From Spirochaetales bacterium (GTDB lineage Bacteria; Spirochaetota; Spirochaetia; SZUA-6; JAFGRV01): 64,000 bases of DNA. Positions 40,905 to 56,840 of the stretch are shown piece by piece. The stretch lies in assembly GCA_016930085.1 (NCBI GenBank), contig JAFGHO010000016.1, positions 31,340-95,339 of the forward strand, read 5' to 3'. Position numbers and translations under genes: made by a program. How positions within the stretch are numbered: position 1 is the stretch's first letter; every line of letters starts with the position of its first letter. The notes under the pieces were generated by a model. That model ran no database searches. It saw only the letters and a program-made list of their open reading frames with translations, and had not been told where the DNA came from.

Positions 40905-41642
40905 TCATCGCATTCCCGTTTTCCGGCGGTAATTCTGAAAGACATGGCCGTGTCCCGGTATGATATAGTCCGATGATTCGATAATGGCGTTCATCGCTTC
41001 CGCGCACTTTTCCTTTCCCATATTACCGGCGTTATACGGCCACGCCTCCCCCCGTTCGTAATACGATTGCGAAACGATCGCGTCCCCGGCGATACAGAAA
41101 ACCCATCCCCCGTATTCCGCGAGAAGGGAGCAATGATCCGGTGTATGTCCCGGTGTCGGCAGCAAGGTGCAGCCCGCAAAGGTATCCCCTGCTCCGCAAT
41201 AACTCGGCGGCATCATGTGCGTAAAACCGCACTTTTCGGCAAGCACCTCGAGGTTCAGCCCCTTCTCCGGCCCGGTGGTGTAAAGCCGCGCGTTCGGGAA
41301 AAACGGGAGGTTGCCGAAATGATCGTGATGCCAGTGCGTGATAAAGATGCCCGCGATACTTTCGAAAGAGAGCCGTTGAAGCGTCAGATGGTAATTCAGC
41401 ATCGCTTTGTTCAATTCCCTCGAAGCGGGCTCCAGATTCCACTCATCGGCATAGCCGGTGTCGACCAGATAATGCTTTCCCCCGAAGGTAATCCGGACGA
41501 CCGACGAGTCGCCCGATTTCAGGAACTGCTTCCGGTACTCTGTGAAATCGGGATTATAACGCTCCCCCGCTTCGATACCAAGGGTTCCCGTTTTCACGAG
41601 GGCGAGTGTCTCTATCAATTGATTTCTTTTTTTTATCTTCAT
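40905..41642 (-). CDS. MBL-fold metallo-hydrolase
   Basis: 'ITHWHHDHFGN' is the HxHxDH motif, and a downstream 'PGHTPDH' is present. Its start overlaps the stop of the upstream PHP-UvrD gene by 4 nt. Confidence 0.7.
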   Translation of the reverse strand: MKIKKRNQLIETLALVKTGTLGIEAGERYNPDFTEYRKQFLKSGDSSVVRITFGGKHYLVDTGYADEWNLEPASRELNKAMLNYHLTLQRLSFESIAGIFITHWHHDHFGNLPFFPNARLYTTGPEKGLNLEVLAEKCGFTHMMPPSYCGAGDTFAGCTLLPTPGHTPDHCSLLAEYGGWVFCIAGDAIVSQSYYERGEAWPYNAGNMGKEKCAEAMNAIIESSDYIIPGHGHVFQNYRRKTGMR

Positions 41643-44600
41643 TGCGTATAATCCTTGAACAGCAAACGCTGGCGGTAATCTTCATCGGCCGTTTTTTTTC
41701 TTGCACCCTCCGCATCACTTGTCAATCGCGCGGGGATATCCCGAAGATACCTGCTTTGTTCGTTCTCCTTCCATTTTCCGAAAACCTTGCGGCGTTTGCT
41801 CCATGAAAGATACAGCAGATCTTTCGCCCTTGTTAGGGCGACATAAAAAAGCCTTCGTTCTTCATCGGGATCGCTCGACGGACCGGTCAGGGGGGTAATT
41901 CCCTCTTCGCAGCCCGCGACAAACACAACGGGAAACTCGAGACCCTTCGAAGCGTGGAAGGTAAGCAGCCGTACCGTATCCGTTTTAAAAGGGCACCCGC
42001 TTTCGTTCGGGCCGATCATACAATAGGTGAGAAATCCTTCGAGATCGGATTGAAACCGCCCGGCCGATTCGAGAAGGGCGTCCTTTTTCATGACGATCGT
42101 CTGGTCCGTCACCGGGAAACAGGGAAATGTGTCGAAAATACACTCTAAAACTGCGGGGACCCCTTTTTCTTGAAGCAGCTTGCAAAGGTCACCGTGAAAA
42201 GCCAGCAACTCATCCGTCTTCCGCTGCTGCTTCTCCGTCAAAAGCCCGCTTTCAGCGAGTCCCCTCATCAGACACCGGTCTTCCGTCTGTTTCGCGTTTT
42301 CATCAAGAAATGGAAGCGGTTCATTTTCCGAAAACACCCCGTAAAGATGAACCAGCACATCACGCAGAGAAACGATATCATTTTCGTTCAAAAGAAGGTG
42401 GAGAAGGCTGCCCGCGCAGGAGAACGGTTTTTCCGAAAAAACCGGCCGTGCGGCCCCCCCGCTAACCGGTACGCCGGCTCCCGCCAGAAACGGTACGAGT
42501 GCTTCACCCGCCGCTTTGGTCCGTGTCAGTACGGCAATGTCGGAAAACGAATACTCGCATTTTCCCGCAAAGGCGGAATCCACGGAGGTAAAACTCATTC
42601 CGCCGACGAGTTCCTCTATCCGTGAAGCAATAAAAGCCCCTTCTTCAACCGGTTCTCCCGCCCTGAAAATCAGCACTTGTTCACCCCTGCCCCTGACCGG
42701 TACGAGTGTTTTCTTCCCCGTTGCCCCGTTTTTTCCGATAACGGAAGCCGCCGAACGGAGGATTTCCTCAGTGGAACGGTAGTGATTAATGAGTGTGATC
42801 GAAACGGGTGAATATTCCCGCCCGAGGCGGAAAAACAGCTTCACGTCGGACCCCCTGAATCCGTAAATTGCCTGATCCGGATCACCGATCGCGAAAAGAC
42901 ACCGCCTGAGTCCGTCGTCTGTTTCATGATACCGCGGAAAGAGCGTCGAAACCAGCTCATACTGTCCCGGATTGATGTCCTGAAACTCGTCGATGGCGAT
43001 AAACCTGTATCGCATCCTCAGGGATTGAAGAAGTTCGGGATCTTTTTGGAGGCAGGCGCACGTGCCCGTAATGAGCGACGAAAGGTCGAATCCGCCGTAC
43101 GCCTTGACCGCATCGAGGTAGCGTTGCGCAAGGGAACGGAGCCGTTTATCTGAGGATTCCCGCGGATTCATAAAAAGCCGCTCCATCCTGTCAGCCAGAC
43201 GAAGTACCTCCTTTTTTTTCATATCGGGATTGAGTATGCAAAGCAACTCGATCCGCCTGTATTTATCGTAGATGTTCCTGATTCGTGGGAATCTCTCCCT
43301 GATAATGTCAAGGCAAAAACCGTGAAACGTACAGACCTTGATACCGCCTGAAGACTTCCCCAGCATGACCGAGAGCCTCGATGCCAGTTCCTTTGACGCC
43401 CTGTTGGTGAAGGTGATCGCAAGAACCTGGCCCGATGAGGCCTGCCCGGTTTCGATGAGGCGTGCGATCCACGATGTGAGGGTTTTTGTCTTGCCGGTCC
43501 CAGGCCCGGCCGTAATTAGGAGCGCCCCTTCGGTCGTATTCAGAACCTCCCGCTGCTCCCGGTTGAGGGTATCCTTACTTTCGGGTTCACCGCTTCTTTC
43601 GCTTTTCCCCTTTTCCCCTTTCCGGATTCCCTTGTGCCCGGATGACCGCCGTGGAGAAAATTTTTTTCTTTCCGGAAGATTGCCGGCCTCAAAAAGGCTT
43701 TCCTGGCCGAGCAGGGCTTCGAGTTCATCGGCATCGAATACCCGTATAACACCAAACTCACCGTCGAAACCCGGCTTCGGGCGAATTCTTCCTTCCCTCA
43801 TCCGTCCGATCGCCTCTCGATAAACGGGACCGAACCTTTGTTCGATATCCGGAAGCGGAACATCGAGAAGAAAGGTGAACTCGTTTCCCCCGAATCCGAC
43901 GAGTTCGGCATAGGTCGAGAGAACCCCTTTCGAGCCCGGGCCGGTTCCCGTGATTTCGGAAACGATTTCGGGCAGGGGGATACAATATCTGAAGCCCGCG
44001 GAAGCTGCCGGCTTTATTCCCTTTTCCCTGTCAGCACATTCCAGAACACGGTGCATCACCCCCACGGTAAGCTTTCCCCCGCAGACCGGACACTCACCCG
44101 AGAGTCTCCTGGTTTCTTCCGGATCGCAGCAAATCCCGCATTTCCTGTGACCGTCGAGATGGTATTTCCCTTCTTCCGGATAAAATTCGATCGTTCCCTC
44201 GAAGCCTTCTCCGGTTTTAAGGGCCCGGAACATCGCGTCATAGGTGAGACCGGTTGAAAAAATATTTGCTTCCCGGCCGAGTTTTTGGGGCGAGTGGGCG
44301 TCCGAATTGGAAATCAGGGTATAGCGGTCGAGGGCGCTCCACCGCCAGTTCATTTCCGGATCGGATGAAAGCCCCGTCTCGAGGGCGAAAATATACCCGC
44401 TTAAATCTTCGAAACATTCCTCGATCGTATCGAACCCGCTTTTCGATCCGAAAAGAGAAAACCACGGCGTCCAGACATGGGCTGGAACGAGATACGCGTC
44501 CTCCGACGCATCGAGGACGATCTCGAGCAGGTGTTTGACGTCGAGTCCGAGGATTGGCCTTCCATCGGACGAAATATTTCCGATGGCATCGAGTTTTCTG

Positions 44601-44977
44601 TTTATCTTTTCGGCAACGGCAAAGTCCGGGGCGAAAAGCACGGAATGCACCTTTCTCGTCCGGTCGCCCTTTTTATAGATCGAACTGATTTCCGCCGAAA
44701 GGCAGAAACGGATATCGATATTCCCGCACCCGGCATCGTTGAACGGAAGATTCTCCGGGAGGTCGTCCGGCGGATCTTTCAGGATGAAAAAACCGTTCGA
44801 ATCCGGTTTCAGTTTTTCCTTGAGTTCGGAAAACCAGACGGGGTGAGTAAAATCCCCGGTCCCGATCAGATTAATGCCCTTGACCCTCGCCCACCGGTAA
44901 AACCCTTCGAGGTTCGACGCTTTGCTCGTCGCGCGTGAATGACATGAATGAACGTGAAGATCCGCTATATAATTCAT
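41639..44977 (-). CDS. PHP-domain phosphoesterase fused to UvrD/PcrA-like superfamily-1 DNA helicase
   Basis: The N-terminus 'MNYIADLHVHSCHSRATS' is a PHP His-cluster. A Cys4 cluster 'CGICCDPE...CPVCGG' follows. The UvrD Walker A is 'ITAGPGTGKTKT', with 'AITFTNRASKEL', 'DEFQDINPGQYEL' (motif II) and C-terminal helicase motifs. Confidence 0.7.
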   Translation of the reverse strand: MNYIADLHVHSCHSRATSKASNLEGFYRWARVKGINLIGTGDFTHPVWFSELKEKLKPDSNGFFILKDPPDDLPENLPFNDAGCGNIDIRFCLSAEISSIYKKGDRTRKVHSVLFAPDFAVAEKINRKLDAIGNISSDGRPILGLDVKHLLEIVLDASEDAYLVPAHVWTPWFSLFGSKSGFDTIEECFEDLSGYIFALETGLSSDPEMNWRWSALDRYTLISNSDAHSPQKLGREANIFSTGLTYDAMFRALKTGEGFEGTIEFYPEEGKYHLDGHRKCGICCDPEETRRLSGECPVCGGKLTVGVMHRVLECADREKGIKPAASAGFRYCIPLPEIVSEITGTGPGSKGVLSTYAELVGFGGNEFTFLLDVPLPDIEQRFGPVYREAIGRMREGRIRPKPGFDGEFGVIRVFDADELEALLGQESLFEAGNLPERKKFSPRRSSGHKGIRKGEKGKSERSGEPESKDTLNREQREVLNTTEGALLITAGPGTGKTKTLTSWIARLIETGQASSGQVLAITFTNRASKELASRLSVMLGKSSGGIKVCTFHGFCLDIIRERFPRIRNIYDKYRRIELLCILNPDMKKKEVLRLADRMERLFMNPRESSDKRLRSLAQRYLDAVKAYGGFDLSSLITGTCACLQKDPELLQSLRMRYRFIAIDEFQDINPGQYELVSTLFPRYHETDDGLRRCLFAIGDPDQAIYGFRGSDVKLFFRLGREYSPVSITLINHYRSTEEILRSAASVIGKNGATGKKTLVPVRGRGEQVLIFRAGEPVEEGAFIASRIEELVGGMSFTSVDSAFAGKCEYSFSDIAVLTRTKAAGEALVPFLAGAGVPVSGGAARPVFSEKPFSCAGSLLHLLLNENDIVSLRDVLVHLYGVFSENEPLPFLDENAKQTEDRCLMRGLAESGLLTEKQQRKTDELLAFHGDLCKLLQEKGVPAVLECIFDTFPCFPVTDQTIVMKKDALLESAGRFQSDLEGFLTYCMIGPNESGCPFKTDTVRLLTFHASKGLEFPVVFVAGCEEGITPLTGPSSDPDEERRLFYVALTRAKDLLYLSWSKRRKVFGKWKENEQSRYLRDIPARLTSDAEGARKKTADEDYRQRLLFKDYTQ

Positions 44978-45258
44978 CCCCGCCAGATTAACAGATTCGG
45001 GGGTGATTGTACAGGGACTTTTTTTCCTGTTTCGCCGGGAGTGTATCCCCGCATCGAACGGCGGATTGACGATATCGCCGGCCCTTAGCGGCTTTGCTTC
45101 GTTACACGTTGAAGCCGCGCGTTCATGGCGTGTTTCTCCATGATTGTGCGGAAAACCGCCTGTGTTACTGCGTCTTTTCGTATTGTTTTAACGAAAAAAA
45201 AATTATAAATGTCATTTTTTTGTTTTTTTTTTATTGACTCTTTTGGAATTGTATTTTA

Positions 45259-45274
45259 CGATTTGCGCAAATCG
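45259..45274. promoter_or_regulatory. Perfect 16-bp palindrome CGATTTGCGCAAATCG in the promoter region of the precursor operon
   Basis: It lies about 110 bp upstream of the precursor ATG, between a TTGACT -35-like hexamer (45234) and the RBS. An extra CAAATCG half-site follows. Confidence 0.3.
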
Positions 45275-45382
45275 TAATGATTTACACAAATCGCAAGCGC
45301 CCGGCGATGCCGTTTTTATTCATTTGGATGACATTACCTATGCTCGTTGAGCATTGACATTTTTACGAAAGGAGGAAACCTT

Positions 45383-45529
45383 ATGTACGAATCTCCATCA
45401 ATTGAAATGCTGGGTGATTCCCAGATGAACAACGTAATGGGAGCCTTTGTTTGGGCAATAGGTCCTGTTTTTGTTGCAGTAGCAGCCGTTGTATTACTCA
45501 TTTTGTCAGTAATTGATATCACTCCGTAA
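45383..45529 (+). CDS. RiPP/bacteriocin precursor peptide (48 aa): double-glycine-type leader with a Cys-free hydrophobic core
   Basis: An AGGAGG RBS lies 7 nt upstream. The leader is MYESPSIEMLGDSQMNNVMGA and the core is FVWAIGPVFVAVAAVVLLILSVIDITP. Leader positions L-12, M-7, V-4 and G-2/A-1 fit the GG-leader consensus. Confidence 0.6.
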   Translation: MYESPSIEMLGDSQMNNVMGAFVWAIGPVFVAVAAVVLLILSVIDITP

Positions 45530-45552
45530 CTGATTATCAATTAACTGAGCCA

Positions 45553-45587
45553 CGGTCGGAATTGAGATATTATCTCTTTTCCGACCG
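45553..45587 (+). terminator. Partial terminator/attenuator hairpin between the precursor and the maturase genes
   Basis: A 9-bp stem cggtcggaa...ttccgaccg has a ~17-nt loop and is followed by a weak T-rich tract. Confidence 0.4.
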
Positions 45588-45665
45588 ATTTACATTTGTA
45601 AAAGCTCATTATCGTATAATAAAATACTGATGAAATTATAATACAAATCAGGAAAGGAGTCAACT

Positions 45666-46712
45666 ATGGCGGAATTGCAATTGCCGGTGAATACATCGAT
45701 ACAGATCAAGCATGCAGAAATCGTAAAAGGGCCCACACAAATCGCTTTCGATATCACGAACAAATGCAATTTTAGGTGCCTTCACTGTTTTAATCGAAGC
45801 AGCGAGAACGACCGGATGAACGATGAATTAACCGACAAACAGGTAAAATATTTTATAAAAGATATAATCAAAATGAAACCGTTTAATATCTGTCTGTGCG
45901 GGGGAGAACCCCTGATCAGGTTTCATTTGATATGCGACATCTCCTCGATGCTCAAGGAGAACGACATCATGGTTTCCATGGTGACGAACGGATACCTGCT
46001 GACGGAGGAAAAGGCGGAAAAATTGTTCGCTTCCGGCGTACGCCGCGTCCAGGTAAGCCTCGATGGGGCCTGTCCGGAAACCCATGAGCGATTGAGAGTG
46101 AAAAAGGGAAGTTTTAATAAAGCGATCGAGGCGATAAAAATATTCAAGACTGCGGGATTCGACGATGTCGGTGTGGCGTTCACCCCGACCAATTTCAATT
46201 GTCACGAGGCAAGCGATGTGATCGCTTTATGCCGGAACCTCGGTGTCAGGGATTTCAGGGTACAGCCATTGATGTGTATCGGCCGGGCGAAGACGAACAT
46301 GGGAAATATACTTCCTTCGAATTACCAATACCGCAACCTCGTCAAGACACTCAATGAATCAAAGACCGAATATACAGACATTAAGATCGAATGGGGCGAT
46401 CCGATCGACCATTTGATTCGCTTCCGTACCGTCACACAACACCTGAACGTCTTTCTCGTCGTTCAGGCGAACGGAGATATAGCGGCTTCCCCGTATTTGC
46501 CGATAACGATCGGCAATATTAAAAAACACTCGATTCTGAAATACTGGAAAAAGGGATTGCCGAAAGTCTGGCAGTTCGAACCGATAAAAAAAATAGCGAA
46601 TAACATCAAATGCATGTCCGATTTCTCCAAAGAACACAAGGATTTGCCGATTGTTTGGTTCGATCAGAATATTCGATACGATGTTATCGACGACAAACTT
46701 ATCAGTTCATAA
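45666..46712 (+). CDS. Radical SAM peptide-modifying enzyme (partial SPASM/twitch-like C-terminal region)
   Basis: The radical SAM motifs are 'FDITNKCNFRCLHCF' (CxxxCxxC) and 'CLCGGEPL'. 'SLDGACPETHERL' is also present. The C-terminus has only scattered Cys (NFNCHE, IALCRN, LMCIG, IKCMS), so no full seven-Cys SPASM. Confidence 0.8.
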   Translation: MAELQLPVNTSIQIKHAEIVKGPTQIAFDITNKCNFRCLHCFNRSSENDRMNDELTDKQVKYFIKDIIKMKPFNICLCGGEPLIRFHLICDISSMLKENDIMVSMVTNGYLLTEEKAEKLFASGVRRVQVSLDGACPETHERLRVKKGSFNKAIEAIKIFKTAGFDDVGVAFTPTNFNCHEASDVIALCRNLGVRDFRVQPLMCIGRAKTNMGNILPSNYQYRNLVKTLNESKTEYTDIKIEWGDPIDHLIRFRTVTQHLNVFLVVQANGDIAASPYLPITIGNIKKHSILKYWKKGLPKVWQFEPIKKIANNIKCMSDFSKEHKDLPIVWFDQNIRYDVIDDKLISS

Positions 46713-46744
46713 TATTTTAGTTATAATAAAATGGAGATGTAATC

Positions 46745-47653
46745 ATGAAAAAAGGAACACCGCACTTTAAAAGTGAAAATCTGCTTTACATGAGGGAGGA
46801 AAACAAAGGTTGTGTCACACTGTTATCCAAATTCCACCCCGAACTGAGAGAATTGGTGATAAACAAAACAACGAAAGAAATCATCGATTTATGCGACGGT
46901 CAAAACACGATCGAAGACATCATTTCAAAAATGAAAGCGAAATATCCGATGGTCCAGTCGGCCATCATTACAAATGACGTACACAAAATTCTCGCTAGTA
47001 CCTCCAGATTGATGTTGATTCAATGGGAACACGAGAACCCGTACCTTTTTCTGAGAGAAGAAATCATAGACGATACGTACGGATTGAGAATCGGCGTCGA
47101 AGACGATTTGTTGAAGATAAAGAAATTTATTATGGACAGCGATATTCTTACAAATGGGAACGACGTTTCTTCCTCGCATTTTTATTATAAAAATGTTTAT
47201 GTCAACACATATGAATACGACGAAGTTTTATTGCGGCAGAAAATATTCAATTTTAACGAGGAGTTCTTCTTTTTAACAAAAAACGGGGAAATAGAAGGAT
47301 TATTATCCTTTCAGCTGCCCATTCCCCCGTCAAAGGCCGCCGTATTGAAGATGTGCATTTGTGCAAAAGAATATTTCAGGGAATTGTTTCGCTATGCATC
47401 GGACAATCTCCCGCACATATCCGTTTCGCAGCTTTCGAAAATTAAATTTATTATCAGTTCGAAGGAGCCTGTTGACGACTCCCTGGTTGAATTGCTAATA
47501 TCTGAAGGATTCGGGGACGAGGGATTGTTCAGGGACGAACTGGGTTTTGATCATGATATTTCCGTCATGGGCTTGAGCTACGATCCCGTCCTTATCGATG
47601 AGATCGAAAAAAACAGGAAAGCGGCTACCGCTATCGGCGGACTGGCGCAGTAG
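46745..47653 (+). CDS. PqqD-like RiPP recognition element (RRE) fused to a ~200-aa domain of unknown function
   Basis: The N-terminal block 'VTLLSKFHPELRELVINKTTKEIIDLCDGQNTIEDIISKMKAKYP...ITNDVHKIL' matches the PqqD/RRE consensus ('ln.ta..iw.l.dG..t..ei...l...y......DV..fl'). Confidence 0.5.
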   Translation: MKKGTPHFKSENLLYMREENKGCVTLLSKFHPELRELVINKTTKEIIDLCDGQNTIEDIISKMKAKYPMVQSAIITNDVHKILASTSRLMLIQWEHENPYLFLREEIIDDTYGLRIGVEDDLLKIKKFIMDSDILTNGNDVSSSHFYYKNVYVNTYEYDEVLLRQKIFNFNEEFFFLTKNGEIEGLLSFQLPIPPSKAAVLKMCICAKEYFRELFRYASDNLPHISVSQLSKIKFIISSKEPVDDSLVELLISEGFGDEGLFRDELGFDHDISVMGLSYDPVLIDEIEKNRKAATAIGGLAQ

Positions 47654-47721
47654 AAACGGGACCGGCGCACAATCGGACGGATTTACCGAAATATCACAAG
47701 GGGAGTGACAGGAATCGAACC

Positions 47722-48486
47722 ATGTATCGACGTTATATGTTAAACGTATCGTTTTTCGTTTTGAGTTTCTTTTTCTCGCATTGTTTCATTTTCGCGGAAC
47801 CGGCCCTGGGGAAAATCGTTTCGGATATAAAAAACAGTAAAAAGGAAATGAGCGGCAAAATCGCCGATATAACGATCATACAGGAAAGCGAAATATATTC
47901 GGAGAAGGGAACGATGCACCTCCGGTCGACGATTTACAAAAAGTCAGATAAATTCCGGGTCGAGAATTCCTGTGAGTTCGCCGGCGCAATTACCGAAGAA
48001 ACAATCATCTATGACGGCCGCGATTACTGGAAAATAGGAAGCGGCCTGAAACAGAAAATAAACAGGGACGAAATGCTGGAGAAGAACAAAACGATTGCCT
48101 TGCAGAAAAACTGGTGGGAAATAATTTCGGAGGAATCACGGCTTGAACAAGCCGACGATGAGGTAACGAACTGCTATATCATCCTGAGTGATAACAACAA
48201 TGAAACATATCGGTGCTGGGTTAACAGGGACAATCTGCTTCTCGAAAAAATCGAAATCATGTTTTCCGAAGACGACAGCATCATTATCGTCTACGGCGGT
48301 TTTGAATCAGTTGTCGACGGGCACGAAATGGCGACGAAAATCGAGCTGTACAGAAACGGTATATTGGACTCGAGAATTTCAATCAAAAAGATCGACATAA
48401 ATACCGGCGTCTCCGACGAGTTATTCGATCCGGACAGGGAAAAAAGTTTCGACCTGAATCGTATATTAAAGGATCTTTTTCAATAA
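47722..48486 (+). CDS. Secreted protein, LolA-like / unknown function
   Basis: A signal peptide 'MYRRYMLNVSFFVLSFFFSHCFIFA' is present. The length and composition suggest a beta-rich lipoprotein-carrier-like fold. The fold assignment is weak. Confidence 0.35.
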   Translation: MYRRYMLNVSFFVLSFFFSHCFIFAEPALGKIVSDIKNSKKEMSGKIADITIIQESEIYSEKGTMHLRSTIYKKSDKFRVENSCEFAGAITEETIIYDGRDYWKIGSGLKQKINRDEMLEKNKTIALQKNWWEIISEESRLEQADDEVTNCYIILSDNNNETYRCWVNRDNLLLEKIEIMFSEDDSIIIVYGGFESVVDGHEMATKIELYRNGILDSRISIKKIDINTGVSDELFDPDREKSFDLNRILKDLFQ

Positions 48487-48563
48487 ATCGGTATAGCGAA
48501 TACCCGAACAATAAACCATTGTTTATATGATCGATAAAAAATTACAATCAGAGAGGATGTTAT

Positions 48564-49055
48564 ATGAGATTATCCAGAATAATCGGATTCCTGAACAGGA
48601 GAAAGGAAAATGAAATGACGGGGGCCGGATTTATCGCCGGAACCGTCCTGGGAATTATCATCGGGCTGTATATCTTTCTTTCGGTACTTATTCTGAAAGA
48701 GGTCACATTAAACCAGCTCGAACTCTCACTCAAGCCGTACGAACGGCTTATCAGCATGGACCCGGTTACCATTTATTATATTACCCTCATCGCGACCCCG
48801 CTTATCGTGGTCTTCATTCATATGATAATCGGTGTGGTGATCGGGATCGGTGTCAATAAACTGAAAAAACCGTCCGCCTGGAAGATCTTGCTCGGCGGGG
48901 CCGCTCTGGGGACGCTTTTCGGCTTTATCACGAGTGCCCCGGCCCCGAGGATTGTTACGTTTATAGTCTGTTTGGCGGCGTGGATTGTTTTTTCCCTTGT
49001 TTTTCTCCTGACCGTTCGTTTATCGAACAGGGAACCGGAGGATAAAACGGCCTGA
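48564..49055 (+). CDS. Small 4-TM membrane protein (candidate immunity protein)
   Basis: Four hydrophobic helices are present. The RBS is 'gagagga'. No catalytic motifs were found. Confidence 0.4.
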   Translation: MRLSRIIGFLNRRKENEMTGAGFIAGTVLGIIIGLYIFLSVLILKEVTLNQLELSLKPYERLISMDPVTIYYITLIATPLIVVFIHMIIGVVIGIGVNKLKKPSAWKILLGGAALGTLFGFITSAPAPRIVTFIVCLAAWIVFSLVFLLTVRLSNREPEDKTA

Positions 49056-49172
49056 TGCCCTGAAGGGAAAAGACAGAGAGATAATGAAAAGCGGCGGGGC
49101 GTATTTCCCGGCGACACCCGAGTCGATTGCGGTCTCCGCGGAAATGCGGATGGAAATATAACTCATGGAAAA

Positions 49173-50948
49173 ATGGAAGAACCGATGAATAAAACTATAC
49201 TGGCGTATAAGGATTTAAAACGGTTACTCGGAATTTTTACGACCTATATTAAAGGGAAAAAGGGGTTATTGTTCCTCGGCGTATTTCTGGGGATAATAAG
49301 CCGGTTATGTGCGTTATCCATCCCCTTGTTTTCGAAATTTATTATCGACACCGTCATCTTCAAAGGTTTTGACAGTTACCTCAACATAACGATACTCTCC
49401 GGGATCGTCATTCTCATTCTTCTTGCGGGGTCATCGATTCTGTCGAATTATCTTCTCTTTAAGGTAAACGGTCTGGGCGGGATCAAGTTCAAGTATTCTT
49501 TTTTCAGAAAACTGCAATATGCGCCATTTACCTTTTTTACCACTATTCAAAAAGGCGCGATCGCCCACAGAATATTGACGGACACCGAACGGATTATCGG
49601 TTTCTGGACGCAGACCGTCGCGACATTGCCGCTGATCGTTATCCTGGGCGCGGGCGGGGCGATAATGCTTCATTACAATCCCGTTCTCTCCTACTTTATC
49701 TTTAGTATTATTTTGCTTCAAATCCTTATCATCGTCGTCTTCAAGGGCCCGATCATGCGGTCCTCATTTTCAATCAAGGAAAACATGGAAAAGCTCACTT
49801 CCTATACCGTGGAGTTTTTTACAAAAATAGAACTGGTGAGAACCCATTCCACCGAAAAAAGCGAACAAAAGAAATTTCTGGGTTCAGTACGGAAATTGTT
49901 CCGGGCGGCATTCAGAAACTTCATGCTCAACAAGGGATATAACAACATCATCGCCTTTCTTTCCTATCTGTGGATCTTCGTCGTGCTCTGGTACGGCGGC
50001 ACACAGATACTGGCGGGTAACATGACAATAGGGACGCTTTCCGCGTTTTTACTCCTTGTCAATATCCTCAACACTCCCATTTTCATGCTGACCGAACTGG
50101 TCCTTTCATTTCAACAAATACGAACCAGCCTTTACCGGTACGAGGAATTCGCAAGGGTCGGAAGATATCTGCCGCCACCTTCCGGCGGCAGGCCCCTGAA
50201 ACCATACAAACCCCAGGAAGGCAGGATCGAATTGAAAGGCGTATCGTTCGGCTACAATGACCATTACGTTCTCAGAAACATCAATGAAGTCATCGAACCG
50301 AATTCCATAACTGCCCTGGTCGGCAGGACCGGCGCAGGTAAATCCACCTTTTGCCGGCTACTGATTAGACTGTTCGATCCGCAATCGGGCTCCATCTATC
50401 TGGACAACAGGGACATCAGGGAAATCAAAATACCTTCTTTAAGAAAATCGATTCATCTCTCTCTGCAGAACAACCATGTGATGAACGGCACACTCTGGGA
50501 AAATCTGACATACGGTACCGGTCATGTCGATAAAAAGGATGTCCTTCTGGCAATGAAAAAAGCGGGAATCGATTTTCATTATAAAATGCCGGCCGGATTC
50601 GACACGTTGATCGGTGTTCACGGATTGAATCTGTCAGGCGGGGAATGCCAGCGGATCGCCATAGCGAGGGCATTGCTTTTAAATCCGAAGGTTTTCATAT
50701 TCGACGAAACGACGGCATATATCGACAACAGGACGGAAGAAAAGATCAAGGATGTATTATGCGAATTGAAACGATCGGGCACCGTTATTCTCATCACGCA
50801 CCGCAGCTCGACGCTGGATGTCGTCGATAATGTCCTGTTATTCGATAATGGAACGATAACGGAATCCGCACCCTCGCATGTTCTGAAACGGGACAGGGGA
50901 AGCGAGTTTTTTAAATCTTTTTATTCAAAAGGAGGCACCCCGGAATGA
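49173..50948 (+). CDS. ABC transporter, fused permease/ATPase (peptide/bacteriocin exporter type; no fused C39)
   Basis: Six N-terminal TM helices precede Walker A 'GRTGAGKST', the signature 'LSGGECQRIAIARAL' and Walker B 'IFIFDETTAYID'. Confidence 0.85.
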   Translation: MEEPMNKTILAYKDLKRLLGIFTTYIKGKKGLLFLGVFLGIISRLCALSIPLFSKFIIDTVIFKGFDSYLNITILSGIVILILLAGSSILSNYLLFKVNGLGGIKFKYSFFRKLQYAPFTFFTTIQKGAIAHRILTDTERIIGFWTQTVATLPLIVILGAGGAIMLHYNPVLSYFIFSIILLQILIIVVFKGPIMRSSFSIKENMEKLTSYTVEFFTKIELVRTHSTEKSEQKKFLGSVRKLFRAAFRNFMLNKGYNNIIAFLSYLWIFVVLWYGGTQILAGNMTIGTLSAFLLLVNILNTPIFMLTELVLSFQQIRTSLYRYEEFARVGRYLPPPSGGRPLKPYKPQEGRIELKGVSFGYNDHYVLRNINEVIEPNSITALVGRTGAGKSTFCRLLIRLFDPQSGSIYLDNRDIREIKIPSLRKSIHLSLQNNHVMNGTLWENLTYGTGHVDKKDVLLAMKKAGIDFHYKMPAGFDTLIGVHGLNLSGGECQRIAIARALLLNPKVFIFDETTAYIDNRTEEKIKDVLCELKRSGTVILITHRSSTLDVVDNVLLFDNGTITESAPSHVLKRDRGSEFFKSFYSKGGTPE

Positions 50949-51595
50949 GATATGGGCCGTATCGGCGTCTTGCGTGCTCCCTCCTTTTTCTTGCCGTCAC
51001 ACTCAATGCCGCCTCGGGCGGCCAGACCGTCGTCACACCGTATTACCGGCTGAAGTTCGAATCGATGGACCGGCAGATATCCGAGTATGCGTGCGGCATC
51101 GCCGTGTTGACGACGTTATTCAATCATTACTTCGAGATAAACCTTTCACAACAAGAAGTCATCGATCGATATGTCGCACAAATTATGGAAGAAAGGCGAG
51201 GAATTAGTTTTTTAGACTTAAAAAAAATCGCCGCCGACCGGGGATTTACCGCAAAGGGATTTAAAATCAACCTCGCCGCCCTGCTGGAATTTTTGAAAGT
51301 CAATACCGTGCCGCTTATCATTCATCTGAATGTCAGGTACGGCGCGGAGAAGGTCGGTCACTTCTGCCTGTTGCTTGGTGAAACGGACGGTTATTTCATT
51401 ATCCAGGACCCGGCATACGGCAATTGCGTTTATACGAAAAGCCAGTTGCTCGATAAATGGAGCGGCAATATCCTCGTTATCGTTCCGCCGGAAAACGACA
51501 AGACGACCGTTGAACGCAGCCGGGAGAATATGGAAAAAGTCATCGAACGGGGAATAGAACGAATACAAAGGATGTTATATTATGAATCATACTAA
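50945..51595 (+). CDS. Standalone C39-like cysteine peptidase (double-glycine leader peptidase type)
   Basis: A signal/anchor is present. The catalytic Cys lies in 'SEYACGIAVLTTLFNHY'. The His is in 'VGHFCLLLG' and the Asp in 'IIQDPAYG'. It overlaps the ABC stop by 4 nt. Confidence 0.6.
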   Translation: MRYGPYRRLACSLLFLAVTLNAASGGQTVVTPYYRLKFESMDRQISEYACGIAVLTTLFNHYFEINLSQQEVIDRYVAQIMEERRGISFLDLKKIAADRGFTAKGFKINLAALLEFLKVNTVPLIIHLNVRYGAEKVGHFCLLLGETDGYFIIQDPAYGNCVYTKSQLLDKWSGNILVIVPPENDKTTVERSRENMEKVIERGIERIQRMLYYESY

Positions 51596-52493
51596 AAACC
51601 CTCTCTTCATCATACTTTGCGCGTCTATTTCGCTCTGTACCGCAAACGATATACACGCGCAATCGGAGAATTCATTATTCAAATTCGGTCTGGAAAAAGC
51701 TTTGGTCCTTTCGGATTCGCTCCATTACAGAAGCGCGACGTCAACGGATGTACAGGAACGGACGATCACAAACACGTTTCAGGCGGGCTATTTCTTTACC
51801 GATGCCTTGTCTCTGTTTCTTACCGTTCCTTTTTCATGCGCTATCTATTCGATTAAAAACATCAATAAAGAAGCAGCCTATGAAACCCAGGCGTTCCTTC
51901 GACTTGAAAACAGCAGCGCGGCCCTTCATTATAAACTCGATTTTTCCCGTATGACCCTCAAAGTCATAGCGGGCCTTGAAATTCCGTCGATGGCCGCCGT
52001 CTGTGACTATTCATCGATCGACAATCCGGGCGACGTTCTCATATCATTCGATTCCGAGTATTCCGATGCCGCACTCGATGATCTCAGAATGTTGACATTG
52101 CTTGCCGGTGAGACATGCTGTTTCACCATAGACCCCGTCATATTGTTCGTATCCCTGAATATTTCATACCCCCTTTGGCGGGAGAAGGATACCGAAGCCA
52201 TCTACACGACGTTCAAGAGCCAGTTGATTCAATCATTGTATTTCATCGTCAACGACTCGATCAGTCTTTTTTACGATATCGGCATCATGCTATACAAGGG
52301 AGAAAATGCCGCCATGATTGAAACCTATGTTGTAAACGGCGGATGCAATATATTGATCTCCCCGACGACGGAAATCGGATTAAATGTAATGACCGCTTTC
52401 AGCGGAAACACGGCCTTCCCGGGTCTCGGCGTCACGCTGACAAAAATAATCAAGGCGGAAGGAAGCGACGCCGGTATTCCTGAAAGCCGTTAA
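51582..52493 (+). CDS. Secreted hypothetical protein
   Basis: A signal peptide 'MNHTKNPLFIILCASISLCTANDIHA' is present. It overlaps the upstream gene by 14 nt. Beta-rich, no motifs. Confidence 0.35.
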   Translation: MNHTKNPLFIILCASISLCTANDIHAQSENSLFKFGLEKALVLSDSLHYRSATSTDVQERTITNTFQAGYFFTDALSLFLTVPFSCAIYSIKNINKEAAYETQAFLRLENSSAALHYKLDFSRMTLKVIAGLEIPSMAAVCDYSSIDNPGDVLISFDSEYSDAALDDLRMLTLLAGETCCFTIDPVILFVSLNISYPLWREKDTEAIYTTFKSQLIQSLYFIVNDSISLFYDIGIMLYKGENAAMIETYVVNGGCNILISPTTEIGLNVMTAFSGNTAFPGLGVTLTKIIKAEGSDAGIPESR

Positions 52494-52556
52494 CCGTCCG
52501 AAGTCCAGGCCGGCGGCGGACGGCCGTTTCCGGAACCGGTTGTCGTGAGAGGGAGT

Positions 52557-53411
52557 ATGAATAAAAAAATCATCCTCTATATTCTCGTCAATTGCATACT
52601 CATCGGAATAGTGGCGGCCGTTTCCGTTATCCTCCATACCGAAATCCGTTATTTCGCGGCGCTTTATATGTTTTTCCCGTTCATTGCGACACTCGTCGCC
52701 GCCGTAAAATACCGGATACCGGCAGCCGACCTGGGATTGAAAATAAGCATCGGTCCGTGGTACGCGGCGGCGTGGATACTCCCCTTTTTTCTCGCCGTTC
52801 TCTCGATCCTCATCAGTCTGATGATGGGACCCGGCATGTCGTTTTCCCCCGGCATGGAAGGACTCGAACGTTTCGGCATCGCCCCCGATGCATTGCCGTC
52901 AAACGGGGGGCTTTCCGTTTGCGGTTGGATCGGCCGTATTTTCCTTGCGTTTGCCGGGGGAATCACCGTCAACGCGATATTCGCGCTCGGAGAGGAAATC
53001 GGATGGAGGGGGCTTCTCTACAAGGAATTGCGCGGCCTCGGTTTCTGGAAATCGTCGCTTGCCGCGGGACTCCTCTGGGGCGTCTGGCACGCGCCGGTCA
53101 TTCTTTCCGGCTACAATTACCCGAACCACCCCGAAATCGGTGTTTTCATGATGACCGCATTCTGCATTCTGCTTTCCCCCCTCATGCAGTTCTTGCGGGA
53201 AAAAACGGGTTCCGTCATACCCCCCGCCGTTTTTCACGGCACTATCAACGCCTTTGCGGGATATACCGTCATATTGATCAAAGGCGGAAACGACTTGCTG
53301 ACCGGCATGACCGGACTGAGCGGGATGATCGTTTTCCTGCTTATGGACGGCCTTTTGTTCGTTTATATGCGGACAGGGAAAGCGGATGGAGAGGGCAACC
53401 GGGAAGTTTGA
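52557..53411 (+). CDS. CPBP-family (CAAX/Abi) intramembrane metalloprotease, bacteriocin-immunity-like
   Basis: Multiple TM helices are present. Motif 1 is 'FALGEEIGWRGLLY' (EExxxR), with 'FWKSSLAAGLLWGVWH' and 'VFHGTINAF' (His motif). Confidence 0.7.
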   Translation: MNKKIILYILVNCILIGIVAAVSVILHTEIRYFAALYMFFPFIATLVAAVKYRIPAADLGLKISIGPWYAAAWILPFFLAVLSILISLMMGPGMSFSPGMEGLERFGIAPDALPSNGGLSVCGWIGRIFLAFAGGITVNAIFALGEEIGWRGLLYKELRGLGFWKSSLAAGLLWGVWHAPVILSGYNYPNHPEIGVFMMTAFCILLSPLMQFLREKTGSVIPPAVFHGTINAFAGYTVILIKGGNDLLTGMTGLSGMIVFLLMDGLLFVYMRTGKADGEGNREV

Positions 53412-53794
53412 TTTATAGAGAAACATATTTTCGGGCGAGGACAACTCTTCGCAGGAGTTACGGAAAAACAAGGGAAATAAAGAATAATAGATTATAAAAT
53501 CGGAAACAGCCATTTTTCAGAATATCTTGCTGATATGCCTTGTATCATTGCTGTACAAAACAGGGTAGATTAATTGCCTGATCTCCATTGTATATTGAAG
53601 CTGAAAAACAAACAAATCATTATATCAAAAGGAGATCAAGAATGTAAAAAAATATCACGATAATAATGCAATTTTGACAGCCTATTTAGCCATGCGAACC
53701 TATAAAGTCGAAAAGAATGCGAAAGGTTTTTCTTCATGGAAACGGTTTATTGAGATGGTTTTAGGTCAGATTCAATATCTTAAAGGTAAGCGGC

Positions 53795-53832
53795 CTTACA
53801 AACCGCCTCCAAAGGAGGCGGTTTGCTTTTGT
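53795..53832 (+). terminator. Strong GC hairpin terminator in the intergenic region after the RiPP operon
   Basis: An 11-12-bp stem caaaccgcctcc-aaa-ggaggcggtttg is followed by CTTTTGTT. Confidence 0.55.
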
Positions 53833-53883
53833 TAATCGACAGCGCTTTCGGGGGAGATTATTCCCATGAATAAGGTCTCCCTA

Positions 53884-54327
53884 TTACAGAAGCACCACAC
53901 CCGGAAAAATCAGATGGATAACCGCGACCGACATACCGGTTATCCCTATCAGTACATGGTACTTCTTGATGGTCGATCTTATTTTTCCGGTATCTTGTTT
54001 AACAATCTCCCCTTCCACTTCTTTATCCTTTTTTGTAAACACGGCGAGCAGCAGGCTTCCGCCTATTGCACAACCCGTCAGTGCGGGGAGCAGGTCTTCC
54101 AGAATAAAAATCCCTCCCGGTTTGATAAACACGAAAAACTGAAGAATCCCGACAGCCAGTGCCGTGATCCCTAATACGGTTTGTATACCCTTGTTGACCA
54201 AAATTCTCCTTATCGGATTAAGCAGCTTAATATCGGTTTCTATATTTCTGAACATGAGAGCCAATCCCCCCAGGAATAGCGTTAGAATGGAAATAAAATA
54301 TAATTGCAGCATGTTTGACTCCTCCAC
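53884..54327 (-). CDS. Hypothetical 4-TM membrane protein
   Basis: Hydrophobic helices throughout. No motifs. Confidence 0.4.
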   Translation of the reverse strand: MEESNMLQLYFISILTLFLGGLALMFRNIETDIKLLNPIRRILVNKGIQTVLGITALAVGILQFFVFIKPGGIFILEDLLPALTGCAIGGSLLLAVFTKKDKEVEGEIVKQDTGKIRSTIKKYHVLIGITGMSVAVIHLIFPGVVLL

Positions 54328-54538: not shown

Positions 54539-55249
54539 ATGCCGTATAGTATTTTAATTGTGGATGATGATAAAGATTTCAGAGTCGAGTTCCGTGATAT
54601 ACTGGAAGAAGAATATGATGTATATGAAGCAGCAAGCGGAGAAAAGGCTATTGAAATCATAAAAAAACCGAATATTGTCGATCTCGCCATTCTGGATGTT
54701 AAAATGCCGGGAATACAGGGAACAGAGGTTTTAAAACAATTAAAGCAACTGGTACCGGACTTGATAATCATAATTGTTACCGGTTATGGTTCAAAGGATG
54801 TCATAATTGAATCCTTAAGAAGGCATGCCGATGATTTTCTGGAAAAACCTTTGAAAATAGAAACGGCGCTGCAAAGAATCAAACAGCTTTTATACAACAA
54901 ACAATGTGAAGTAAAAGGCGTCATTGAAAAATTAAAGCATTTTATCGAAAAAAATTTTCACAAGAAAATAAGTCTAAAGGATGCTTCAAACGTTGTCTGT
55001 TTGAGTCCCAAATATATCTCAAAAATATTTAAAGACGAGGTCGGGATTGGATTCAATGAATATAAACTCAGGTTAAAAATGGAGAGGGCAAAAGAATTAC
55101 TGGGTTTGCATACGTACAATATCAATGAGATTGCCGGTAAAATAGGATATCTGAATATCGAATCCTTTGCAAGGATATTTAAACACCTGACAGGTGTTAC
55201 TCCCTCTGAATATAGACAGCTTTTATTTCATGGAGAAAAACATGAATAA
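54539..55249 (+). CDS. Response regulator with AraC-type HTH output
   Basis: The receiver is 'ILIVDDDKDFRVEF...LAILDVKMPGIQG'. The C-terminal AraC HTH is 'LKDASNVVCLSPKYISKIFKDEVG ... IAGKIGYLNIESFARIFKHLTGVTPSEYR'. Confidence 0.8.
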   Translation: MPYSILIVDDDKDFRVEFRDILEEEYDVYEAASGEKAIEIIKKPNIVDLAILDVKMPGIQGTEVLKQLKQLVPDLIIIIVTGYGSKDVIIESLRRHADDFLEKPLKIETALQRIKQLLYNKQCEVKGVIEKLKHFIEKNFHKKISLKDASNVVCLSPKYISKIFKDEVGIGFNEYKLRLKMERAKELLGLHTYNINEIAGKIGYLNIESFARIFKHLTGVTPSEYRQLLFHGEKHE

Positions 55250-56840
55250 ATTGTTAAAAACCATATTTAGTAAAAACCGGTATCATCCCGACGAATGTGA
55301 TGTGATATTCAATGCTTTTACCGATCCCGTCATTGTCTATAATGCTTTAGGATGTATTATAAAAGCAAACAAGGCAGCAGAAGATTTTTTACAATTCAAT
55401 CCGATAGGATTACATACCATCGGACTTGCCGAAATTCCCGCATCCGGTTTATCGACCGGGAAACCGGATGCGGTCGAGACTCTTTTATCAAAGGCTTTAA
55501 AAGGAGAAATCGGCAAAGATGTATCGTGTCAATTTACGGATAAAAACGGAAATAAAAGGTTTTGCAGCTGTTCAGCCGCGCCAATCCTCGATCGTACCGT
55601 TGTAGCCGGAATTATCCTTGTTTGGCATGACATTACAGAAATAACAGAAAAAGAAAAACAATTGGAAATAAACAATAAAAAGCTGGAAAACCTGGTTAGC
55701 GAAATAAATGAAAAGCAAAAAGTATCGGATAAACAGATAATAAACGATAAGAAAGAAATTGATACAAAAGATTCACAGATAATGGTTTCAAATAAACTGC
55801 TGGAAATAATATTTTCCAATACTCACTTTCTGATTGCTTACTTATCCACGGACTTTACTTTTATCCAGGTGAATGATGCTTATGCAAGGGCATTTAATCG
55901 GTCGCCTGATTTTTTTGCGGGAAAAAATCATTTTGATTTATTTCCCAACGAAGAAAACAAGGCTGTCTTCTCTCACGTTGTAAAATCGGGAGTTTCCTAT
56001 ATAACATATGTAAAGCCGTTTTTTCATCCCGACAAATCGGAATCCGATGCTACCTATTGGGATTGGAGTCTTCAGCCTATAAAAAACAATAATAAAGTTG
56101 AAGGAATCATTTTAGTCCTCATCGATGTGACCAGAAGGAAAAAAGCGGAAGAAGATTTATTTAATGCAAAAAGATTATCGGATATCGGAACACTGGCGGC
56201 GACGGTGGCCCATGAACTCCGCAATCCCCTTGCGGTCATTCAGGCAGCTATTTATAATATCAAGAGAAAAAGTCGGAATAGCGATATTGAGAAACATATA
56301 GAAAATATCAACGCAAAAGTCGAAGAGAGTGAACAGATTATCAATAATCTGCTTGGTTATTCGAAGTTTAAAATTCCTCAAAAGACGGACGTTTCAATTT
56401 ATAATTTTTTAAATGATCTGTTTGATGACATCCAGGGCAAAATGACTAAAGACACTATTATCATCAACAGAAAATACGAATCCCTAAAAGATACGATTAT
56501 TCATATCGATCCCGTCCAAATTCGTGAAGTACTCAATAATATAGTGAATAATGCATATCAAGCCATACCGCAGGTTAACGGCCGTATTGAAATTCAGGGG
56601 AATCTCTCAGGTAACAATCGATTGAATTTATACATTACGGATAACGGAAACGGAATAGAAAATGAAGATTTGGAAAAAATATTTAATCCCTTTTTTACAA
56701 ATAAGTCCAAGGGCACGGGATTGGGGCTAACCATCTGTAAAGAGTTGATCAAACTGCATAATGGAAATATAGAAATACTTAGTCAAAAGGGAGAGGGCAC
56801 TATTGTGAGGATTTCCCTTCCTCTAAACGTGATACCATGA
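55242..56840 (+). CDS. Cytoplasmic PAS-domain sensor histidine kinase
   Basis: Two PAS-like regions and a coiled-coil precede the H-box 'ATVAHELRNPLAVI'. The N/G boxes are 'NNIVNNAYQAI' and 'DNGNGIE...GTGLGLTICKELI'. The start MNKLLKT follows a GGAGAAAAAC RBS and overlaps the upstream RR's last codons. Confidence 0.8.
   Translation: MNKLLKTIFSKNRYHPDECDVIFNAFTDPVIVYNALGCIIKANKAAEDFLQFNPIGLHTIGLAEIPASGLSTGKPDAVETLLSKALKGEIGKDVSCQFTDKNGNKRFCSCSAAPILDRTVVAGIILVWHDITEITEKEKQLEINNKKLENLVSEINEKQKVSDKQIINDKKEIDTKDSQIMVSNKLLEIIFSNTHFLIAYLSTDFTFIQVNDAYARAFNRSPDFFAGKNHFDLFPNEENKAVFSHVVKSGVSYITYVKPFFHPDKSESDATYWDWSLQPIKNNNKVEGIILVLIDVTRRKKAEEDLFNAKRLSDIGTLAATVAHELRNPLAVIQAAIYNIKRKSRNSDIEKHIENINAKVEESEQIINNLLGYSKFKIPQKTDVSIYNFLNDLFDDIQGKMTKDTIIINRKYESLKDTIIHIDPVQIREVLNNIVNNAYQAIPQVNGRIEIQGNLSGNNRLNLYITDNGNGIENEDLEKIFNPFFTNKSKGTGLGLTICKELIKLHNGNIEILSQKGEGTIVRISLPLNVIP

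Follow-up and report, generated by a model that had tools for sequence, protein, structure and literature searches.

What does a compact row of nine genes in a Spirochaetales bacterium produce? The genes lie on the + strand of a 64,000-nucleotide stretch of DNA (GenBank assembly GCA_016930085.1, contig JAFGHO010000016.1, positions 31,340 to 95,339), hereafter called the window, and all coordinates below without a locus label are positions within it. An initial annotation, made from the letters of the sequence, had proposed a candidate new cluster for a bacteriocin-like peptide made by the ribosome and modified after translation (RiPP), comprising a precursor with a double-glycine leader, a radical SAM enzyme, a protein with a RiPP recognition element (RRE), a LolA-like protein, a small membrane protein, an ABC exporter, a C39 peptidase, a secreted protein and a CPBP-type protease. 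All nine open reading frames are present at the coordinates proposed, and profile searches against Pfam (2025) and NCBIfam (June 2026), on which the domain assignments in this study are based, confirmed the component classes radical SAM, RRE, ABC, C39 and CPBP and, at the level of its family, supported the LolA-like assignment. Judged from gene content, the nine genes very probably form a cluster that makes, modifies and exports a small and very hydrophobic ribosomal peptide. Radical SAM RiPP clusters are an already known kind of system, and the overall explanation towards which we lean is a cluster of a widespread RRE-dependent radical SAM family that is combined with an export set for two membranes. 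The nine genes are as follows.

45383..45529, + strand: precursor peptide, 48 residues; ATG at 45383 with AGGAGG 7 nucleotides upstream; homologous peptides beside radical SAM homologues in many loci
45666..46712, + strand: radical SAM enzyme, 348 residues; PF04055, 1.5e-27
46745..47653, + strand: protein with a PqqD-like RRE and a predicted GNAT-fold domain, 302 residues; PF05402, 1e-5, residues 39-85
47722..48486, + strand: LolA-like secreted protein with an N-terminal signal sequence, 254 residues; PF17131, 0.0064
48564..49055, + strand: small membrane protein, 163 residues; assigned by hydrophobicity, no family match
49173..50948, + strand: ABC exporter half-transporter; PF00664, 7.9e-33, and PF00005, 1.4e-28
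50945..51595, + strand: stand-alone C39 peptidase with an N-terminal signal sequence; PF03412, 1.4e-19
51582..52493, + strand: secreted protein, 303 residues; directly 3' of the C39 gene in all relatives that have both
52545..53411, + strand: CPBP/Rce1-like intramembrane protease; PF02517, 4.8e-15, 56.1 bits against a cut-off of 22.4

The precursor family and its enzyme pair

The precursor consists of a leader of codons 1-21 (45383-45445), which contains the motif Y2-x-x-P5 and a double-glycine site at G20-A21, and a core of codons 22-48 (45446-45526), whose 27 residues, FVWAIGPVFVAVAAVVLLILSVIDITP (2821.68 Da), are rich in Val and Ala and include no Cys. The monoisotopic mass of the full-length peptide before any modification is 5106.62 Da. 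The description of the leader as a GG leader holds: V, M, L and I occupy positions -4, -7, -12 and -15, and nine related leaders are built alike. Within this set of ten subfamily leaders, five of which are confirmed to adjoin a C39 gene, G stands at -2 and a hydrophobic residue at -4, -7, -12 and -15 in every member, and position -1 is A, G or S in eight and E in two. With ComA- and LahT-type peptidases, an arrangement of this kind is known as the classical double-glycine leader.

When 185,579 species-representative genomes were scanned for a pattern, relatives of the radical SAM enzyme appeared at 256 loci in many phyla and at least 256 species-level genomes; 80 loci were fetched and labeled L001 onwards, and L081, L082 and L083 are metagenome contigs. 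In almost all of the 80, the radical SAM gene has the RRE-GNAT-like gene and a precursor with Y-x-x-P as neighbors. The hosts include Paenibacillus, Clostridium, Faecalibacterium prausnitzii, Bacteroides, Collinsella, Atopobium, Anaerococcus, Treponema, Nitrospira, Caldisericum, Holophagae and Pirellulaceae. Neighborhoods were counted in the 51 loci that are flanked by 3 kb or more on both sides. The gene for the RRE-GNAT-like protein adjoins the radical SAM gene in 46 of these, a hydrophobic precursor with Y-x-x-P lies within 3 kb of it in 47, and an ABC gene is present in 38; about 35 loci of the sample are near-identical Collinsella loci, and the independent sample is nearer 40. All nine genes are also found together in each of the three metagenome contigs, in unchanged order between different flanking genes in L081 and L082 and in a permuted order in L083, where it runs from ABC, C39, secreted protein, CPBP and small membrane protein to precursor, radical SAM, RRE and LolA-like genes, so that the association of precursor and enzymes persists through gene rearrangement. 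The genes are thus strongly co-conserved, contrary to one of the outcomes that the initial annotation had named as fatal to its proposal. The secreted C39 peptidase, the secreted protein of about 300 residues, the LolA-like protein, the four-helix membrane protein and the CPBP protease are confined to the subfamily to which the window belongs.

Homologues of the precursor itself were sought by phmmer and by a motif search over the fetched loci, and proved to be a conserved family of stand-alone peptides of 44-70 residues, encoded beside radical SAM homologues in many phyla; the suspicion that the peptide is the N-terminus of a conserved membrane protein was not borne out. In an alignment of 27 precursors, Y and P are the sole invariant columns, within a leader consensus of Y-x-x-P-x-(I/V)-x-x-(L/V/I/M)-(G/N/D). 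PqqD-type RREs are documented to recognize the sequence W/Y/L-x-x-P/L/I (PMC12710340). The precursor falls under no model of Pfam or NCBIfam, the 27 sequences giving scattered matches at chance level, and six further homologues emerged when 1.84 billion representative proteins were scanned in full with HMMER.

The cores are of unusual composition. Across the family they contain 22.5% Val and 18% Ala, with Lys, Arg and His together below 2%, and 23 of the 29 curated precursors have no Cys. In their hydrophobic segments, which contain 25% Val, 20% Ala and 9.5% Leu, the precursors do not look like an ordinary transmembrane helix: the transmembrane segments of the membrane proteins of the cluster itself contain 8.6% Val and 16% Leu, and the comparison of Val and Leu contents has an odds ratio of 4.9 (p = 1e-11). 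W-L-(W/Y)-x-E-T at the start and (I/V)(D/E)(I/V)TP at the end are seen in many cores, not in all. A termite-gut Clostridiales metagenome-assembled genome (L015, 11087-11773) encodes four tandem precursors with near-identical leaders and differing cores, two of which end in SQID(V/A)TP and two in purely Val/Ala/Thr tails. In L001 (2099-2260) the precursor core is a run of N in the contig, read as X. In the window, a search for a second precursor copy found none.

The radical SAM enzyme was aligned with relatives from bacteria and one archaeon (26 sequences, 42-64% identity). It has a single CxxxCxxC motif, whose C34, C38 and C41 are invariant, and a conserved segment, N74-x-C76-x-C78-G-G-E, at the SAM-binding GGE motif. 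Beyond residue 78, that is, in the C-terminal 270 residues, the alignment contains no conserved Cys. Profile alignments to MftC, PqqE, GeoRSP and NirJ2 nevertheless extend to about residue 295, and because of this reach we read the C-terminal part as a probable SPASM/twitch-type region minus its cluster-binding cysteines. The enzyme reaches no curated NCBIfam cut-off, its best scores being 136 against 500 bits for AhbD, 112 against 265 for MftC, 84 against 381 for PqqE and 87 against 300 for SkfB, and Pfam and NCBIfam place it no further than the generic Radical_SAM and Fer4_12 domains. Its orthology to a housekeeping enzyme, which the initial annotation had put forward for refutation, was thus not found, and neither was membership in a known maturase family. 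By sequence, its nearest solved structure in the PDB is SkfB (95 bits). The Pfam search detected no B12 domain. The earlier claim that the enzyme is not a thioether synthase, based on a core without Cys, holds and gains from the lack of conserved Cys in the SPASM-like region.

The partner protein has its RRE at about residues 17-90, and PF05402 matches all 28 aligned members of its family, in agreement with the PqqD-like RRE fusion noted previously. The fused part, at about residues 110-260, is predicted to adopt a GNAT fold from an AlphaFold model, the pLDDT of which was 41 for a single sequence (unusable) and 57.5 with a five-sequence alignment. Neither the window protein (…CICAKEYFRELF…) nor the 28-sequence alignment has the acyl-CoA pyrophosphate motif Q/R-x-x-G-x-G/A that would follow strand 4, and GNAT Pfam families match none of the 28 members. 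Word-indexed homology searches with this protein returned 3-5 proteins only, even with a 28-sequence profile. In Caldisericum sp. AR60 (L009, 9995-11938) the radical SAM and RRE-GNAT-like parts are joined in one open reading frame of 647 residues, a "Rosetta stone" fusion, which supports the notion that the two proteins would work jointly.

Several related loci have additional genes. In seven of them (L022, L023, L026, L029, L030, L032 and L034), class-B radical SAM genes for B12-binding enzymes are present in addition, one or two per locus, and both PF02310 and PF04055 were found in the four such proteins scanned (from L022, L029 and L032); this suggests an extra C-methylation of their peptides. 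In L017, L018, L021 and L033 there is a second, longer radical SAM gene (about 440-495 residues) together with a second PqqD-like gene. The precursors of L017 and L018 have a Trp/Cys-rich tail at their end (…AAWVWCDPYW), which suggests an additional cross-linking step. A DUF3108 protein is encoded beside the core pair in L001, L017, L018 and L031 (Pfam match checked on L001), as is a membrane protein with a bacterial PH domain in L002 and L003 (Pfam match checked on L002).

Export genes, candidate control elements and genomic setting

The membrane domain of the ABC protein begins at residue 33 and no peptidase domain is present, so its architecture is not that of PCAT transporters; its best NCBIfam matches, all beneath their cut-offs, are to the HlyB type (287 bits), an MsbA-related exporter (286 bits) and the NHLP-bacteriocin exporter (277 bits). 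The peptidase is encoded separately. Its residues Q44, C50, H139 and D155 are invariant in an alignment of six family members and line up with the catalytic residues in the peptidase domain of ComA, and all six have a signal-like N-terminus. The best NCBIfam matches are far below cut-off (FilB, 68.7 against 475 bits; FapD, 64.5 against 330 bits). Since the peptidase has a signal peptide and its nearest profiles are those of the periplasmic FilB and FapD, cleavage would probably take place after export.

The 303-residue secreted protein is conserved in L002, L003, L035, L081 and L083. Single members of its family give faint matches to porins, FilC and FapF (E about 0.001-0.09; FilC and FapF 0.036-0.089), and an outer-membrane partner is a possible role. 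The LolA-like protein, whose gene is conserved in L003, L081 and L083, scores 16.6 bits against a PF17131 cut-off of 30, and all four members of its family match this model, the best at 1.1e-8. Sequence searches of the PDB with the RRE protein, the 303-residue protein and the LolA-like protein gave nothing useful. The small membrane protein shows three merged hydrophobic segments in a Kyte-Doolittle plot and about four helices by eye; homologues are confined to L081, L082 and L083, and no Pfam or NCBIfam model matches it. We consider it a candidate immunity protein or export accessory. The CPBP protein, whose gene is conserved in L081 and L083, carries the motifs EEIGWR, WGVWH and FHGTIN (EExxxR, FxxxH and HxxxN) and is likewise a candidate immunity or processing protein.

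The elements found outside the coding regions are the following.

45234..45262, + strand: sigma-70-like promoter candidate (TTGACT, 17 nucleotides, TACGAT); consensus scan, 9/12 matches
45256..45277, no strand: perfect 22-bp palindrome TTACGATTTGC|GCAAATCGTAA; repeat search, 100% complementary; overlaps the -10 element
45553..45587, + strand: stem-loop in the gap between precursor and enzyme genes; 17-nucleotide arms, 88% complementary
53799..53825, + strand: terminator-like hairpin, 12-bp stem with 8 G-C pairs; consensus scan

The promoter candidate (45234..45262) is weak by itself, the number of sites in the scan being equal to that expected from shuffled sequence. An imperfect second copy of the palindrome lies at 45279-45296, upstream of the precursor, and the pair (45256-45296) looks like a repressor operator. 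The hairpin that had been reported after the precursor is real: an 85-nucleotide region folds with a minimum free energy of -28.6 kcal/mol, against -11.1 +/- 2.6 for shuffled sequences (z = -6.8). Hairpins also stand 3' of the precursor in L081 and L083, with sequences unrelated to that of the window, and we regard the stem-loop at 45553-45587 as a candidate attenuator or mRNA stabilizer. An Rfam scan of 44900-53900 matched no known RNA element. The hairpin at 53799..53825, located between the cluster and a convergent gene, is the probable end of the operon. The overlaps of 4-14 nucleotides that had been ascribed to several gene pairs do exist but are limited to two, namely ABC/C39 (4 nucleotides) and C39/303-residue secreted protein (14 nucleotides).

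The GC content of the cluster is 43-48%, against 53-57% in the flanking housekeeping genes, which are those for a DeoC aldolase, an MBL hydrolase and a UvrD-type helicase on one side and for glutamate synthase on the other. This contrast and these flanks fit a horizontally acquired island. The helicase belongs to a protein of 1112 residues (41639-44977, - strand), in which it occupies residues 471-1061; the N-terminal stretch of about 450 residues has no Pfam match at 1e-4 and starts with DLHVHS, which is reminiscent of PHP phosphoesterases. Directly after the cluster, at 54539-57217, lie genes for an AraC-type response regulator, a double-PAS histidine kinase and a single-domain receiver with a GC content of 35-37%. 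This two-component system (54.5-57.2 kb) was considered as a regulator of the cluster and rejected, because it is not found beside the cluster in L081 or L083; for the same reason it is probably a separate insertion.

Chemistry and fate of the product

From the gene content, domains, leader motifs, intact catalytic residues and co-conservation seen in the sequence, we infer each biochemical step of the scheme that follows, including its chemistry, the order of export and cleavage, and the activity of the product. The PqqD-type RRE of the 302-residue protein would bind the Y-x-x-P motif of the precursor leader, and the GNAT-fold domain without a CoA motif would probably hold the hydrophobic core or dock on the radical SAM enzyme. 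The latter, with one [4Fe-4S] cluster, would abstract hydrogen from aliphatic residues of the Val/Ala-rich core, and the outcome may be C-alpha epimerization to D-residues, as in the maturation of proteusins. The ABC transporter would move the leader-bearing product, the secreted C39 peptidase would cut after G20-A21 in the periplasm, and the LolA-like protein would deliver the 27-residue hydrophobic product to the outer membrane or across it, perhaps by way of the 303-residue protein. The four-helix membrane protein and the CPBP protease would shield the producer or trim the peptide, and the product would probably target the membranes of other cells. We place the scheme of export followed by periplasmic cleavage at an even chance, and we put forward epimerization to D-residues tentatively, as a possibility that deserves to be weighed first.

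The substrates themselves narrow the choice of chemistry. The core of the Treponema locus L016 is composed solely of G, F, V, A, M, L and I, and one core of L015 solely of V, A, T, E, L, G, P and Q, with no aromatic residue, Cys or Lys; for this reason the family-defining reaction, as read from these sequences, must act on aliphatic side chains or on the backbone. Thioether formation, Lys-Trp cross-linking and aromatic cyclophane formation were considered for this reaction and excluded, since some members lack the residues needed. The enzyme lacks a B12 domain and conserved cysteines for an auxiliary cluster, and to our knowledge the one known reaction of a radical SAM enzyme with a single cluster on such aliphatic residues is C-alpha epimerization by the proteusin enzymes. 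The hydrogen could come from C76 or C78 by the GGE motif. The B12 radical SAM genes in the seven related loci may be compared with the polytheonamide pathway, in which PoyB/C accompany PoyD. Proteusin epimerases are described as lacking an auxiliary cluster (PMC13012085).

A number of observations weigh against this picture. The likeness to PoyD-type epimerases considered here is the shared absence of an auxiliary cluster, and similarity to YydG is marginal, with 34 bits confined to residues 21-117. All-even glycine spacings in L016 and L017 led us to consider spacing parity as a sign of D/L alternation, which was rejected: the family has 15 even and 13 odd spacings, a difference that is not significant. 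The conserved C-terminal (I/V)(D/E)(I/V)TP and the W-L-W/E-T motif could mark a site-specific modification. The GNAT fold is predicted from a mediocre model (pLDDT 57.5), the possible role of the 303-residue protein as an outer-membrane partner depends on weak matches of single family members, and the labels "bacteriocin" for the product, with the antimicrobial activity that it implies, and "immunity" for the CPBP protein are inferential.

Alternatively, the same RiPP cluster may carry out another chemistry: a C-C or C-O cross-link, a desaturation, a change at the I-D-I-T-P or W-L-W-x-E-T motif, or possibly a Cys-mediated methyl transfer via the conserved C76 and C78. We find this doubtful, yet it is the alternative that survives best. 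The C-terminal (S/T)x-I-D-(I/V/A)-T-P is shared across phyla (this spirochete, Paenibacillus, Cellulosilyticum and Anaerococcus), many cores start with W-L-(W/Y)-x-E-T, the radical SAM relatives nearest by sequence (SkfB, MftC, PqqE and AhbD) cross-link or oxidize, and the glycine-parity test gave no D/L alternation. These facts must be set against the apparently genuine family members of L016 and two of the four peptides of L015, in which neither motif is present and the core is free of heteroatom side chains, against an enzyme that has no conserved Cys for auxiliary clusters, which the oxidative reactions of SPASM/twitch enzymes normally use, and against the absence of a B12 domain for C-methylation. 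The weight left beside epimerization and these other chemistries falls to no modification or to an unspecified one.

A second alternative accepts the modified peptide and assigns it to the envelope of the producer itself, as a surface-active peptide, an amyloid-like fiber subunit or an outer-membrane-inserted peptide exported in a Fap/Fil-like manner, and not as an antimicrobial. The best matches of the C39 peptidase, FilB of a pilus system (68.7 bits) and FapD of an amyloid system (64.5 bits), and the weak resemblance of its neighbor to FilC, FapF and porins would suit such a role, as would a sequence rich in Val, Ala, Thr, Gly and Ile, which favors beta-sheet, and a LolA-like carrier, which hints at delivery to the outer membrane. 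The FilB and FapD matches are far beneath their cut-offs (475 and 330 bits), though, and the cluster combines an ABC exporter, a double-glycine leader and a CPBP gene, which is the standard bacteriocin gene set. The patchy, island-like distribution, the GC contrast and the differing flanks in L081 and L083 also fit an accessory competition trait better. We therefore think an envelope role improbable, even with the precedent of hydrophobic RiPP surfactants such as the clavusporins (bioRxiv 10.1101/2024.01.23.576971). That the cluster is no RiPP system at all, the 48-residue frame being an ordinary small membrane protein and some other molecule being the substrate of the radical SAM/PqqD pair, would suit a core that resembles a single hydrophobic helix, a product so far known from genes alone and profile matches that include the cofactor-biosynthesis enzymes AhbD, NirJ and MoaA, and is nevertheless very improbable given the Y and P invariant in 27 sequences and the double-glycine site in the peptide N-terminus, a peptide gene that travels with the enzyme pair over phyla and rearrangements, up to four tandem variable copies (L015), as is typical of RiPP precursors, and the absence of cofactor-pathway genes nearby.

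Returning to an RRE-guided RiPP pathway acting on aliphatic cores, we note that these substrates offer only unactivated C-H bonds, and the reaction would therefore be either epimerization by a new enzyme lineage or a chemistry unseen in RiPPs. We speculate, as an unlikely but far-reaching case, that the radical SAM enzyme is a third, independently evolved type of peptide epimerase, guided by the RRE-GNAT-like protein and making mixed D/L membrane channel peptides that resemble gramicidin or polytheonamide. If this is true, D/L channel peptides would be made by many anaerobes, including Collinsella, Faecalibacterium and Bacteroides of the gut, and in two-membrane bacteria a LolA-like chaperone would ferry them over the periplasm. 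With relatives of the enzyme in at least 256 species-level genomes, common human gut bacteria among them, the product could be a widespread membrane-active peptide that is relevant to competition in the microbiome.

Comparison with known systems

The initial annotation had stated that no such cluster is documented. Among mainly open-access papers, we found no description of this radical SAM/precursor family or of its chemistry, and an account in a subscription journal is possible; the cluster is not one of a kind, given the distribution of its enzyme. The combination that we did not find described is that of a SPASM-clade enzyme without conserved Cys in the SPASM region, an RRE-GNAT protein without a CoA site and near-all-aliphatic cores, joined in two-membrane bacteria by a C39 peptidase that is secreted and a LolA-like carrier. 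Its parts can be compared with five groups of known systems.

With the proteusins (polytheonamide and landornamide, with PoyD and OspD), the cluster shares a radical SAM enzyme without an auxiliary Fe-S cluster, a peptide rich in Val, Ala, Ile, Gly and Thr, and the expectation of a membrane-active hydrophobic product, and some related loci add B12-dependent radical SAM genes, just as PoyB/C stand beside PoyD. The proteusin leader, however, is an NHLP or Nif11 domain of about 90 residues, whereas the leader here has 21 residues with Y-x-x-P and a double-glycine site, and recognition would be the task of a separate PqqD-type RRE that is fused to a predicted GNAT fold. The enzyme also groups with the SPASM-type clade of AhbD, MftC, PqqE and SkfB, and epimerization is a proposal in the present case. 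The epipeptides of Bacillus subtilis (YydF/YydG, or EpeX/EpeE) resemble our system in the small cluster, the precursor of about 49 residues, the membrane protease and the ABC transporter, and, as proposed here, in a radical SAM enzyme that acts on the C-alpha of Val and Ile and a product that perturbs membranes. YydG/EpeE has a twitch-type auxiliary [4Fe-4S] cluster (PMC13012085), whereas the enzyme of the window has no conserved Cys where a twitch cluster would bind; its similarity to YydG is limited to 34 bits over the N-terminal residues, about 100 in number, an RRE protein would be needed, and the cores are far more hydrophobic.

The SPASM/twitch maturases that use a PqqD-type RRE (PqqE/PqqD, MftC/MftB, SkfB and the sactipeptide and ranthipeptide synthases) are of the same enzyme clade by profile, and have in common with our cluster the PF05402 RRE partner and a leader motif of the W/Y/L-x-x-P type. 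They differ in that the SPASM-like region here has no conserved Cys and their cut-offs are missed 2- to 5-fold, and in that the core here contains neither Cys nor a conserved Tyr/Glu pair and the RRE is fused to a predicted GNAT fold.

On the side of export, double-glycine systems (ComA, LagD and the PCAT1-type C39-ABC transporters, with Abi/CPBP immunity) share the G-(A/G/S) site with hydrophobic residues at -4, -7, -12 and -15, the Q, C, H and D of C39 aligned to ComA, an ABC half-transporter and a CPBP gene that ends the operon. Their peptidase is the cytoplasmic N-terminal domain of the transporter, whereas here it is a separate protein with a signal peptide, always paired with a secreted protein of about 300 residues and, in the subfamily of the window, also with a LolA-like protein; these three would make up a set for export that fits two-membrane bacteria. 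In the Fap/Fil systems (FapD/FilB with FapF/FilC), too, the gene for a stand-alone C39 peptidase that is secreted lies beside that for a secreted, possibly outer-membrane, protein, but the scores are far beneath the cut-offs, the partner reaches FilC and FapF at E of about 0.04-0.09, no amyloid subunit genes are present here, and radical SAM, RRE and ABC genes are. Taken together, these comparisons suggest that in its workings the cluster resembles a radical SAM RiPP system that depends on an RRE and uses double-glycine processing, and that by its genes it falls outside the sactipeptides and ranthipeptides, the pyrroloquinoline quinone (PQQ) and mycofactocin pathways, the epipeptides and the proteusins.

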